Shown: one piece after another, positions 29,193 through 31,244 of the stretch | How the letters are laid out: each line of letters opens with the position of its first letter | How positions within the stretch are numbered: the stretch's first letter is position 1 | From: Candidatus Poribacteria bacterium | Lineage (GTDB): Bacteria > Poribacteria > WGA-4E > PCPOR2b | NCBI GenBank assembly: GCA_965208325.1 | Contig: OZ242326.1 | Span: 2,816,001-2,880,000 of the forward strand | Reading direction: 5' to 3' | DNA: 64,000 nt | Position numbers and translations under genes: made by a program | The notes under the pieces: model-generated | Databases searched by the model: none | What the model saw: the letters and a program-made list of their open reading frames with translations, nothing else | What the model was told of the DNA's origin: nothing

Positions 29193-29483
29193 TCAGATTT
29201 GTGAGCCGTGAAGCAACGGAGACACGGTTGATTCGATTGGAGGCGCTGGCAGGTCATAATCTGGGAACAGCCATAGTTGCTCTGCCTCATCCGTGATGTC
29301 TTCAACGGACGGTTCGTCGAACGGCGTTGCCGCGTTCGCCCATAGTTCCATCCCCTGAATGCGCGGATTAGCTCTGATGCGGGCGTAAATTCGGGCGCGG
29401 CGTTCATGGTCGATTGTTTCTTGAGCGAAAACTTCGCGCATCAATTTTATGAATCTGTCAGTAGAAAGCTCGGCTTGCATCAT
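29193..29483 (-). CDS. Small protein with acidic tail carrying a QLWLF beta-clamp-binding-like motif
   Basis: ATGA overlap with the upstream clamp gene stop; QLWLF at 29279-29265. Confidence 0.65.
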   Translation of the reverse strand: MMQAELSTDRFIKLMREVFAQETIDHERRARIYARIRANPRIQGMELWANAATPFDEPSVEDITDEAEQLWLFPDYDLPAPPIESTVSPLLHGSQI

Positions 29484-30601
29484 CTCATGGGCATTACAAC
29501 GTATTGAAAGTTTTGCGCCAATTCAAGGCGCATTGAATCAGTCGGTTCCGGACGCATCCAGAATATAACTTCGGCGGCATCGGTGTGCATTAACCCGTCT
29601 TCAATGAAACTGGCATCGAATCCTGCCGCAGTACCTTGCCCCTCATACTGAATCGGCACACAAGCTTTCGAATTTCCCCAGCGGGTACTATTTTCAACAG
29701 TCAACTGTCCATCACGAATGCGAAACTCCGTACGGTTGTGGGGGTGGTCGTCACCTATGCGGATGGCTCTGAGTGCCCACAGCAACTCTTGACGACTCAA
29801 CCTGATTTCCAAGCGGGCGCTGTTCGCTTTTTCAAGAACCCACTTATAATCCGCGAAATCCCCTTTCGGTAAGAGGCACCTTAACGAAACCCCCTCAGCC
29901 TCAAAACCCACGGCGTTTTCGGTAAAGCGGAGGCGGCAGACGTTTGGATTCAAGGATTCTATCAAATCAATCATCTTCATGCAAGCGGCATAAGGCATTG
30001 CCCGCATCGGAATAGAGGTTTCCGCTTCGGCTGGTTTATTCATTGATGGTAAGGTAATCACTGCCATCCGTCTGCCATCGGTTGCCACGATTCGTTCTTC
30101 ACCTTCATGTTGATGAAAGAGCGCTCCCGTAAGGAAGGGACGCCGGTTTGCCTCGTCCGAGTCTGATGGCTGTACCGACGCAAACAGAACGGATTTCAGA
30201 GCCGCTCCGAACTGCGTTGCTTGCACTTCATAGTCGGGCGCGTCTGAAAGCGCTTCAAGTTCGGGTTTCTGCCGTTTCCCCGTATGTGTACGCACGGCAT
30301 GCCGATGTTGATTGCCATCAACTTCCAAACACCCATGCCATTTGTGGTGACTGAAACGCAGCCTTTCACCAACCGCGTGGTTGCAGATTCGCGACAGCGC
30401 GTCCGGGGGAACGGTTGCCTTTCCGGTGGCTTCGACCTCCGCTGGAATCGCATAATCTACACGGAAATTCCCGTCGTCGGTGTAGCATCTAAACTGTAGT
30501 TGCGCAGTTTGAATCGTAATCGACAAGTGTGTCCCCGGTTCGTCGAGTTTCAATAGGGTTAAGGCGCGCGTCAGCGCAGCCACATCACAAGTGAATTTCA
30601 T
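29480..30601 (-). CDS. Divergent DNA polymerase III beta sliding-clamp paralog (DnaN-like)
   Basis: MKFTC start with GAGGA RBS, RPFLTGALF, VATDGRRMA, G.FADY, GFDASFIED.L, C-terminal YVVMPMR; 373 aa. Confidence 0.85.
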   Translation of the reverse strand: MKFTCDVAALTRALTLLKLDEPGTHLSITIQTAQLQFRCYTDDGNFRVDYAIPAEVEATGKATVPPDALSRICNHAVGERLRFSHHKWHGCLEVDGNQHRHAVRTHTGKRQKPELEALSDAPDYEVQATQFGAALKSVLFASVQPSDSDEANRRPFLTGALFHQHEGEERIVATDGRRMAVITLPSMNKPAEAETSIPMRAMPYAACMKMIDLIESLNPNVCRLRFTENAVGFEAEGVSLRCLLPKGDFADYKWVLEKANSARLEIRLSRQELLWALRAIRIGDDHPHNRTEFRIRDGQLTVENSTRWGNSKACVPIQYEGQGTAAGFDASFIEDGLMHTDAAEVIFWMRPEPTDSMRLELAQNFQYVVMPMR

Positions 30602-30686
30602 CGGTTCCTCCCCACCCGCAAGGCGTGCATTGAGAAATGTCCTTCCCAATTGATTCCTCCTTGGGTGTGTTTTTCTGAGTCTGGAA

Positions 30687-31244
30687 TTAGAACAGGTCTT
30701 CGATTGATATTTCTCTCTGTTTGAGCAGCCGCAACACCTCATCGCGCAAGGCGTTGCGTGCGCGTTGCCGAAGTGATTTAACAGCGATTTCGCTCCGTTG
30801 AACAATCTTTGCAATCTCTCGGTTCGGCATATTTTCCAATTCGCCCAACACCAGCACCGTGCGGTCGATAGGTCGTAGTTGAAGTAAGGCGGCTTGCAAA
30901 TACTCCCTGCTTTCAGCGTTAATCAACCGTTTGAGCGACGATTCCGTCGAATCCAGCGAGAAAGGCAACGACTGAGTCAATTCATGCGTAATTGGATAAT
31001 CGAATGAAATCGCCGGGCGTTGTTGGCGCTGGCGTAAAAGGTCAATACACCCATTGTACGCGATGCGAAACAGCCACGATCGCACGGCCGCCGGATCAAG
31101 TAATTCAGTCCATCCCTGATACGCTCTGAGAAATGTCTCGGCGGTCATGTCCTCGGCATCTGTCGGGTTCCCTAGTAGCCGAAGAACAAACCGGTAGATA
31201 GCGTCAACATGCGATTCATATACTTCGATGAATGTCTCATCCAC
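30687..31244 (-). CDS. ECF-family RNA polymerase sigma factor
   Basis: DAEDMTAETFLRA, WLFRIAYN..ID..R (region 2); EIAKIV.RSE.AVKS...RAR (region 4). Confidence 0.9.
   Translation of the reverse strand: MDETFIEVYESHVDAIYRFVLRLLGNPTDAEDMTAETFLRAYQGWTELLDPAAVRSWLFRIAYNGCIDLLRQRQQRPAISFDYPITHELTQSLPFSLDSTESSLKRLINAESREYLQAALLQLRPIDRTVLVLGELENMPNREIAKIVQRSEIAVKSLRQRARNALRDEVLRLLKQREISIEDLF

Follow-up and report, generated by a model that had tools for sequence, protein, structure and literature searches.

Organization of the sigma-clamp operon

The DNA analyzed here (the window) is a 64-kb stretch from a Candidatus Poribacteria genome of about 4.7 Mb. In the region 29193..31244, three genes in the same direction on the minus strand encode an extracytoplasmic function (ECF) sigma factor, a divergent paralogue of the beta sliding clamp (DnaN) and a small protein of 96 amino acids (aa), and are closed by a terminator. 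These three genes (the trio) and their features are listed below in the order of transcription.

31284..31315, minus strand: ECF-type promoter, TTTCGATGCC-N15-CGTCATA, about 45 nucleotides (nt) upstream of the sigma GTG; present in 21 of 21 loci
30687..31244, minus strand: ECF (group 4) sigma factor, 185 aa, GTG start; Pfam r2 and r4_2, TIGR02937
30690..30707, minus strand: last six codons of the sigma factor, S-I-E-D-L-F-COOH; clamp-binding-type DLF tail
30602..30686, minus strand: sigma-clamp spacer, 85 nt, with the strong ribosome-binding site GGGGAGG before the clamp ATG; from a 17-locus alignment
29480..30601, minus strand: divergent beta sliding-clamp paralogue, 373 aa, predicted to have three domains
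30299..30349, minus strand: His/Cys-rich beta-hairpin HHKWHGC...HRH, residues 85-101, in clamp domain I; the family has 14 conserved Cys/His columns
30062..30088, minus strand: VATDGRRMA, clamp residues 172-180, part of the peptide pocket; aligns to E. coli beta VATDGHRLAV
29483..29503, minus strand: YVVMPMR, C-terminal pocket-forming strand of the clamp; aligns to E. coli YVVMPMR
29193..29483, minus strand: clamp-coupled small protein, 96 aa, with two predicted N-terminal helices and an acidic disordered tail
29265..29279, minus strand: QLWLF, residues 69-73 of the small protein, clamp-binding-type motif; from the family alignment
29102..29139, minus strand: hairpin and T-tract terminator, common to the trio and the convergent Fic gene; from sequence and fold

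An earlier note on this DNA had described three co-oriented genes closed by a terminator, with the small open reading frame (ORF) translationally coupled to the clamp gene by an ATGA overlap, and each of these elements was found in place. The DLF tail of the sigma factor, the unique promoter and the sigma::DnaN fusions reported below were not mentioned in it. The longest ORF of the clamp gene starts at 30814; the start common to all homologues is the ATG at 30601, behind GGGGAGG, giving the protein of 373 aa. A TTG at 30649 was rejected as the start, since it is not conserved among homologues. The terminator is formed by a stem of 29139-29133 paired with 29118-29112, followed by a T-rich tail (fold of -31.6 kcal/mol, z -2.46). 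A simple consensus terminator scan did not pick up the hairpin at 29139..29102 because its loop is long.

The spacer was also considered as a possible RNA element. No such element is claimed, because the consensus hairpin of 17 loci was weak (-3.16 kcal/mol) and had a single compensatory pair. At two loci (L015:7791-8000 and L023:7746-8000) the 85-nt spacer is expanded by an insertion of 120-170 nt, and the three genes are intact. Both insertions end in the common sequence TGCGTAAGTCCTAA, and inverted ends are visible in L015; the insertion looks like a miniature inverted-repeat transposable element.

Conservation and distribution of the trio

Our clamp survey covered one genome per species and yielded 21 loci, with clamp identities of 55-93%. 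Twenty were titled Candidatus Poribacteria, and the exception was a 1.9-kb contig binned as a gammaproteobacterial metagenome-assembled genome (MAG). Conserved synteny, for which the earlier note had proposed a search, was found: by tblastn, the sigma gene, the clamp gene and the small ORF were adjacent and in the same order in 20 of the 21 loci, and the remaining contig ends inside the clamp gene. The coupled junction between clamp and small ORF was kept across the loci, as an ATGA overlap in 17 and as TAATG in 4. The three proteins co-diverged, with identities of 71-99% for the sigma factor, 55-93% for the clamp and 46-76% for the small protein. The earlier note had regarded a lack of conservation of the small ORF as fatal to its proposal; the ORF is conserved in the 21 loci and in 136 metagenomic clusters. 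One MAG carries two copies of the trio (L016 and L018). In a divergent orthologous locus (G004), all three genes are present and the small protein has 162 aa.

Among 41 genomes of relatives, 16 contained the small ORF: 11 of 24 in family f1 plus the window's own genome, 4 of 5 in f3, and none of 6 in f2 or of 5 in f4. A clamp scoring below threshold was found in 14/41 genomes, and a canonical dnaN above the cut-off in 40/41. Two of the 16 small-ORF genomes hold just deletion remnants with the promoter retained (L133 in G035 and L134 in G029). In one remnant, the first 55 sigma codons run directly into codons 40-96 of the small ORF; the other consists of sigma 1-97, clamp 321-373 and a broken, frameshifted small ORF. 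A viral origin of the trio was considered and rejected, as IMG/VR contained no relatives of the clamp or of the small protein.

The sigma factor and its C-terminal tail

The sigma factor carries only sigma-2 and sigma-4 domains within its 185 aa, as expected of an ECF (group 4) factor. Pfam matched Sigma70_r2 at residues 9-74 (60 bits) and r4_2 at 114-166 (47 bits), and NCBIfam TIGR02937 gave 80.2 bits against a cut-off of 42.9, in agreement with the earlier call of an ECF sigma. No named ECF group or equivalog was assigned; all specific NCBIfam sigma models scored far under their cut-offs, the best being PRK12513 (92 bits against 206). With a mean column identity of 86% over the 21 loci, the sigma factor is the most conserved of the three proteins.

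Its closest solved relative is B. subtilis SigW (5wuq), and the alignment stops at residue 170. The remaining 15 residues form an extension past the SigW-type sigma-4 domain that ends in S[IL]xDLF-COOH. S180, D183 and L184 are invariant, and position 185 is F in 19 of the 21 loci and L in two; the divergent G004 orthologue likewise ends in TIDDLF. Among the 26 ECF-like ORFs of the genome, the sigma factor of the trio alone has a DLF ending. The motif lies at the extreme C-terminus. The clamp-binding consensus is QL[SD]LF, and DLF without the rest of the consensus works as a clamp tag in Mor of phage Mu (PMC12867686). The tail thus points to a second clamp-type tag in the operon, as predicted from sequence.

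The clamp paralogue

The clamp protein matched TIGR00663 over profile positions 32-366 of 367, with 77.7 bits, below the cut-off of 137.65. Only the central clamp domain was recognised by Pfam, the N- and C-terminal domains being undetected. An AlphaFold2 (AF2) model of moderate confidence (mean predicted local distance difference test, pLDDT, 64.9) aligned with solved beta clamps over 351-381 columns (Foldseek E of about 1e-22, template modeling score 0.56-0.59), from which the protein is predicted to have the three-domain clamp fold over its full length. A canonical dnaN (291 bits, three Pfam domains) lies between dnaA and recF at G000:C1:3119775-3120869, 274 kb away, and its product shares 24% identity with the trio clamp. 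The trio clamp was not filed as a replicative DnaN, because it failed both the TIGR00663 cut-off and the dnaA-dnaN-recF context. The description of this protein in the earlier note as a full-length but divergent DnaN with no dnaA or recF nearby was therefore upheld, and it is not the only DnaN of the genome.

Members of the paralogue family fall into 53 clusters with identities of 53-95%, and nothing lies between these and the ordinary DnaNs, which begin at about 24%. A quick maximum-likelihood tree, of the kind that the earlier note had proposed, placed the paralogues in one clade on a very long stem (2.15 substitutions/site; Shimodaira-Hasegawa approximate likelihood ratio test, SH-aLRT, 100), outside the monophyletic canonical Poribacterial DnaNs (support 99). 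The inner topology of the clade tracks the host genera. No special phage affinity is assigned to the trio clamp, because its score with PHROG family 947 (106 bits) is well below that of the canonical DnaN (269 bits).

Profile alignment to E. coli beta in the PDB (3pwe_A) paired VATDGHRLAV with vttdGrrmav, FPDY with fpdy, GFNVSY with aidarf and YVVMPMR with yvvmPlk. The segments kept in the family are VATDG.R.A, (F)PDY, G-F-D-A-x-F and YVVMPMR, and T174, G176, R178, M370 and P371 are invariant. On this alignment, the clamp retains the residues of the peptide-binding pocket. It is also rich in Cys and His (8 Cys and 13 His, versus 2 and 2 in the canonical DnaN), and 14 Cys/His columns are conserved at a level of at least 80% in the family. 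The HHKWHGC...HRH hairpin is absent from the canonical clamp, and H86, H89, H99 and H101 are retained in the divergent G004 orthologue. The His/Cys cluster may be a metal or redox site or input.

A third "DnaN" match in the genome was rejected as a clamp. It is a 563-aa DUF4159 protein in G000:C1:4637000-4643000 (L114:1087-2775, minus strand), whose N-terminal clamp-domain match is below threshold (21 bits against 24.4); similar frames of 570-610 aa were seen in four relatives.

The small protein

A low-confidence AF2 model predicted helices at residues 3-21 and 26-38 of the small protein, the remainder being disordered (tail residues 53-66 and 76-96 with pLDDT below 50) except for an isolated short helix at 66-72, in the motif region. 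Among 120 family members, the net charge of the C-terminal half has a median of -10; the protein has no membrane span. Of these members, 106 carry QLWLF, 11 carry x-x-W-[LM]-F variants and two carry QLRLF, and one has none; a Q/P-x-[WR]-[LM]-F motif is thus present in 119/120, inside an acidic disordered tail that is otherwise poorly conserved. A second hydrophobic patch, [FS][SP]L[LF], lies near the C-terminus in 98 of the 120. The helical N-terminal half and the acidic QLWLF tail noticed earlier were therefore borne out; no homology to anti-sigma factors was detected. NCBIfam, PADLOC and PHROGs gave no relevant match, and the ESM Atlas returned nothing except matches below 0.9 to unnamed clusters of 29-33 aa. 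By these profile and sequence searches, the small protein appears to belong to no known family.

The promoter and its targets

The boxes of the promoter upstream of the sigma gene fit the ECF type, with a conserved -35 and a CGT-containing -10. The common -35 of ECF promoters is GGAAC, from which that of the trio differs. A position weight matrix (PWM) of both boxes gave 39.4 bits for the operon's own site in the whole genome, with the runner-up at 20.3 bits and a reversed-genome control reaching 21.2 bits. A strict pattern search of the 41 genomes returned 19 matches, 15 at trios or remnants and four inside long ORFs, whereas the backwards control returned 0. Because the promoter is unique above background in the genome, the operon itself is the only recognisable target of the sigma factor. 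By analogy with the usual autoregulation of ECF sigmas, we infer that the sigma factor drives its own promoter, and the uniqueness of the promoter fits such an autoregulated loop.

Two other candidate sites were rejected. A near-perfect -35 match at about G000:C1:3069178 is antisense within a 375-aa ORF, and a CGTCATA that precedes a MacB-like permease gene in four loci, all closely related, lacks a matching -35 and is not put forward as a promoter. Divergent from the sigma promoter region is a xylose-isomerase-like TIM-barrel gene (31352-32227, plus strand), which has the same position in 12 of the 21 loci; the divergent intergenic region of about 105 nt may therefore hold both promoters.

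Other sigma-clamp layouts in Poribacteria

Sigma-clamp coupling recurs in the phylum in three layouts. The entry point to the second was a set of 585-aa open frames in f2, a family without the trio. These are single-ORF sigma::DnaN fusions of 577-585 aa, containing Pfam r2 and r4_2 and all three clamp domains; two were verified by Pfam and two more by tblastn.

L136:1634-3388 (G025): sigma::DnaN fusion
L135:2273-4003 (G034): sigma::DnaN fusion
L137 and L138: further sigma::DnaN fusions

Uninterrupted, near-full-length fusion matches were found in about 37 of 176 genomes of the phylum, all in genera g8 and g14 of one family, and further copies were broken by one or two stops. The fusions have an ECF-type promoter of their own, TGCAAC-N16-CGTCATTA. 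Their clamp part nests in the canonical f2 clade, with about 50% identity to canonical DnaN, and their sigma part belongs to an ECF clade other than that of the trio sigma. In two loci a second, related sigma gene follows the fusion, and a MacB-type permease gene often adjoins it. Such fusions may be taken as Rosetta-stone evidence of a functional link between sigma factor and clamp, and suggest that their physical linkage was selected.

The third layout was found in four g8 species, as an operon in which an ECF sigma gene (175 aa) is followed by genes for a 138-aa soluble protein and a 389-aa DnaN paralogue with all three Pfam domains.

L139 (G028:C109:19000-27000), 5267..3108, minus strand: zf-HC2 operon
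L141-L143: further copies of the zf-HC2 operon

The 138-aa protein contains a zf-HC2 anti-sigma domain (25.3 bits against a cut-off of 22.2), and its acidic tail has conserved WEQL[TPI][LM]F and WIQ[LI]TL[PQ]D segments, whose QLTLF and QLTLP/Q are of the clamp-binding type. A bona fide anti-sigma with clamp-type tags, encoded beside a clamp paralogue, is therefore an architectural precedent for a soluble anti-sigma held by a clamp. A quick FastTree with limited sampling (35 sequences) placed the sigma factor of this operon as sister to the trio sigma (SH-like support 0.906). Upstream of the operon are a MacB-type permease gene and an ABC exporter gene. The permease is 70% identical between lineages and occurs beside the fusion, the zf-HC2 module and some g5 trios (immediately after the trio in 4 of the 9 loci of genus g5); its recurrence may reflect inherited synteny or a functional link.

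Many f2 Poribacteria have several DnaN genes, including tandem canonical duplicates (for example in G038, G034, G031 and G040), and about 96 of 112 f2 genomes gave at least seven DnaN matches at E<=1e-60. Clamp paralogues seem to have multiplied in this family.

Comparison with known systems

The trio was compared with the systems that it most resembles. Phage T4 also combines a sigma-family protein (gp55) and a small acidic partner (gp33), each tagged at or near its C-terminus, with a clamp gene (gp45). gp33 alone represses, and with the clamp it becomes an activator (PMC7892883). T4 differs in being a phage whose gp45 is a trimeric, PCNA-type replicative clamp, and in that gp55 lacks sigma-4, for which gp33 substitutes on the beta flap; the trio sigma is a full ECF factor that would read the -35. 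The trio, by contrast, is cellular and chromosomal, its clamp is a paralogue of the dimeric beta type that exists beside the replicative one, and its small protein showed no sequence similarity to anything in the searches made. It does not qualify as a T4-type system: sigma-4 is present, the small protein has no match in PHROGs or the PDB, and IMG/VR contains no relatives. A functional analogy to the clamp-activated transcription of T4 is possible.

In phage Mu, the activators MuC and Mor carry QHDLF, QPDLF or, in Mor, just DLF, and the beta clamp is needed for activation (PMC12867686). The terminal DLF of the trio sigma and the QLWLF of the small protein are of the same motif type. Unlike the trio proteins, MuC and Mor are DNA-binding activators that act with sigma-70 and the host replicative clamp; in the trio, an alternative sigma factor and its partner bear the tags, and the clamp gene that goes with them encodes a dedicated paralogue.

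Pairs of ECF sigma and anti-sigma factors share with the trio a co-transcribed small partner and an autoregulated operon. Besides class I anti-sigmas of the zf-HC2/ZAS kind, short, two-helix class II anti-sigmas such as CnrY and NepR are known, and the two-helix N-terminal module of the small protein is compatible with short anti-sigma domains of this kind. The trio differs in having the clamp gene between sigma factor and partner, and in the absence of zf-HC2, HxxxCxxC or a membrane span. ECF29 and the CorE2/SigZ type of ECF238 resemble the trio sigma in that sigma-4 is followed by a short conserved stretch of 15-30 aa, which is a proposed or demonstrated modulator of activity; these extensions are Cys-rich or RCE/D and have no partner gene, whereas that of the trio ends in DLF beside a clamp gene (PMC7826278).

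The earlier note had named the self-resistance clamp GriR as an alternative model. GriR is an extra DnaN that confers self-resistance to griselimycin, and like the trio clamp it is encoded by a second dnaN outside dnaA-dnaN-recF. The trio differs from it in the lack of a nearby antibiotic cluster, the 24% identity to the canonical clamp, the His/Cys-rich domain I and the coupling to a sigma factor and a motif-bearing protein. Its neighbours likewise do not fit a GriR-like locus, being a TIM-barrel enzyme, Fic and restriction-modification (RM) fragments in the window and miscellaneous enzymes elsewhere.

Full-text literature searches combining ECF sigma, clamp, DnaN and Poribacteria returned no description of a cellular sigma-clamp module. 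The main text of the ECF reclassification paper (PMC7826278) contains no mention of clamp, polymerase III or Poribacteria, and the portion of its supplement covered here has one unrelated "delta subunit" context and no clamp-linked group. Within these sources, the earlier statement that no described ECF group has this layout stands.

Proposed mechanism

We propose, with a probability of roughly 0.45, that the trio forms an autoregulated ECF switch that is complete in itself and is controlled at a dedicated clamp paralogue without a replicative role, on which sigma factor and anti-sigma would be docked. The sigma factor would transcribe its own three-gene operon from the genome-unique promoter. 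The 96-aa protein would be its cytoplasmic, anti-sigma-like adaptor, with the N-terminal helices engaging the sigma factor and the acidic disordered tail docking by QLWLF in the clamp pocket. The S[IL]xDLF-COOH of the sigma factor would provide a second, weaker tether, and since a clamp dimer has two pockets, sigma factor and partner could be held together. The state of the clamp, with its pockets free or ligand-occupied and its ring free or DNA-loaded, would then set how much sigma factor reaches RNA polymerase. We infer the protein-protein contacts, the sign of the regulation and the signal, and propose the anti-sigma or adaptor role of the small protein by analogy.

The earlier note had suggested a soluble anti-sigma or adaptor held by the paralogous clamp. 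This suggestion is strengthened by the conservation of the trio as a unit, the motif, the pocket and the zf-HC2 precedent, and is weakened on the side of the small protein itself, which has no detectable homology to anti-sigma factors. Several observations weigh against the proposed switch. Searches with all 21 members of the small-protein family found no relevant Pfam match at E up to 10, and no anti-sigma among them; a PDB profile search at E up to 10 gave 0 matches; and hhalign of the family against the Poribacterial zf-HC2/CBM anti-sigma, with a probability of 0.3, led us to reject a relationship to zf-HC2. The small protein also lacks the HxxxCxxC of the zf-HC2 family (PF13490), and the window's copy has no Cys at all. 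Its QLWLF is close to the QL[SD]LF pentapeptide, yet has W rather than S or D at position 3, and the sigma tail has just the DLF core and no full QL[SD]LF. In the PWM scan for a regulon, nothing in the genome exceeded the reversed-genome control besides the operon's own promoter. The module is dispensable, as the small-ORF query found nothing in 25/41 relatives. The roughly 50% identity of the fusion clamps to canonical DnaN fits a DNA-loaded ring better than a pure sequestering scaffold. Complex prediction with sigma factor, clamp and small protein, from our own paired alignments, gave 0.54, and a control with the clamp replaced gave 0.68; this result was counted neither way.

Alternative explanations

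The fusions also bear on the main rival explanation, in which the clamp activates transcription in the manner of T4 or Mu. The host loader would load the paralogue at nicks or primer junctions, and the sigma factor (through DLF) and a small co-activator (through QLWLF) would ride on it, so that the promoter is stimulated just with loaded clamps and expression is coupled to replication or repair. On its own, the small protein might act as a repressor, like gp33. Both the sigma factor and its small acidic partner carry clamp-type tags, as gp55 and gp33 do for gp45 (PMC7892883), activation by MuC and Mor requires clamp-binding motifs (PMC12867686), and the three clamp domains of the fusions suggest a DNA-loadable ring covalently tied to a sigma factor. 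We nevertheless regard this explanation as unlikely on present evidence. With a complete sigma-4 and a conserved -35, the trio sigma has no need of a stand-in like gp33; the trio clamp is far diverged, with its 24% identity and 2.15 substitutions/site stem; the trio is not phage-borne; and a single promoter per genome was found. The sigma/anti-sigma switch and positive control of the T4/Mu type are not mutually exclusive. A further possibility is an inducible clamp that serves as a decoy or confers resistance: by mimicking the binding pocket, it would titrate or sense pocket ligands, for instance phage clamp binders or peptides of the griselimycin or mycoplanecin type. Until displaced, the small protein would plug the pocket; the role of the sigma factor would be to raise the level of decoy, perhaps together with that of exporters encoded nearby in certain lineages. 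The conservation of the pocket while the rest of the clamp diverges would suit this, as would an operon whose sole recognisable output is itself, the MacB-type permease beside the fusion and directly after the trio in four of the nine g5 loci, the ABC exporter gene adjoining the zf-HC2 module, and the existence, judging by structure titles, of solved clamp structures with such natural products. Yet a GriR-type clamp should closely resemble the replicative one, which a paralogue on so long a branch does not, and neither the window nor 12 loci of its clade have a biosynthetic cluster or exporter near the trio. A decoy would also leave the DLF tail of the sigma factor and the conserved helical domain of the small protein unexplained. 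We therefore judge the decoy, raised as the alternative in the earlier note, to be improbable.

SocB of Caulobacter targets the replicative clamp, and offers a model for a replication brake or toxin-antidote pair, in which the small protein would hit the canonical clamp via QLWLF, the co-translated paralogue would neutralise it and the sigma factor would set the dose. The overlapping, translationally coupled gene pair, the patchy distribution and the deletion remnants are as such a pair would have them, and the overproduced clamp binder MuC is toxic in E. coli (PMC12867686). The trio, however, is chromosomal, co-diverges vertically and lies outside mobile contexts, PADLOC gave no match, and a brake would account neither for a dedicated sigma factor with a DLF tail nor for the zf-HC2 and fusion variants; it seems to us quite improbable. 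That the three genes are chance neighbours, co-inherited with fortuitous motifs and without a functional link, is scarcely credible, given the synteny over two families, the coupled start and stop codons, the near-invariant motifs within otherwise variable regions and the independent recurrence of sigma-clamp pairing and fusion.

Implications

Returning to the clamp-docked sigma/anti-sigma switch, we extend it tentatively, and at somewhat less than even odds, to the proposal that Poribacteria recruited clamp paralogues more than once as signalling hubs for ECF sigmas, which would make this the first cellular, non-phage case of a clamp-gated alternative sigma factor. As a signalling hub, the clamp would read pocket occupancy by ligands, natural products or phage proteins, or report DNA-loaded clamps during replication or repair. 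ECF sigmas are known to be controlled by anti-sigmas, either membrane-bound or soluble, by fused extensions, by kinases and by two-component systems (PMC7826278). They are very abundant signal transducers of bacteria, and control by a clamp-fold protein would be a new class beside these; the chance that the trio represents a new principle of regulation for cellular sigma factors is substantial. Clamp-coupled transcription, described in the phages T4 and (in 2026) Mu, would also gain a cellular example, in line with the prediction of the Mu authors that such use of the clamp is "more prevalent than hitherto recognized" (PMC12867686). The beta-clamp pocket is an antibiotic target, and if competition for it is the signal, the module would act as a naturally occurring biosensor of pocket ligands. 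The hosts are uncultured, but the module is small (three genes and one promoter) and offers sharp point mutants in QLWLF and DLF, so that its reconstruction and testing in E. coli are feasible.

Neighbouring genes

The genes around the trio in the window are as follows.

27870-29063, plus strand: Fic_N/Fic protein, convergent with the trio
32553-33887, plus strand: protein with Schlafen-AlbA_2 and HATPase_c_4 domains
34025-34321, plus strand: fragment of a type I RM specificity subunit, 98 aa
34405-34647, minus strand: integrase-core (rve_3) fragment, 80 aa, from an insertion sequence (IS)

This patch of Fic, Schlafen-AlbA_2, RM and rve_3 genes consists of accessory and decayed genes and is missing at most related loci. 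In one clade the flanks comprise the TIM-barrel enzyme, a DNA-methylase fragment, dehydrogenases and a VIT-VWA protein, and in the other a DUF4037 protein, methyltransferases, the MacB-type permease and a CPT-like kinase. Because the flanks vary by clade, the Fic, Schlafen, RM and IS surroundings are local and form no part of the system. The accessory or defence context that the earlier note had read from the Fic gene and the RM locus was thus weakened, the Fic and RM fragments being local to this genus.

Farther away, at 23990-25836 on the minus strand, the window contains ORFs that, from their translations alone, resemble a microcompartment shell protein (113 aa) and a PduL-type enzyme (235 aa).

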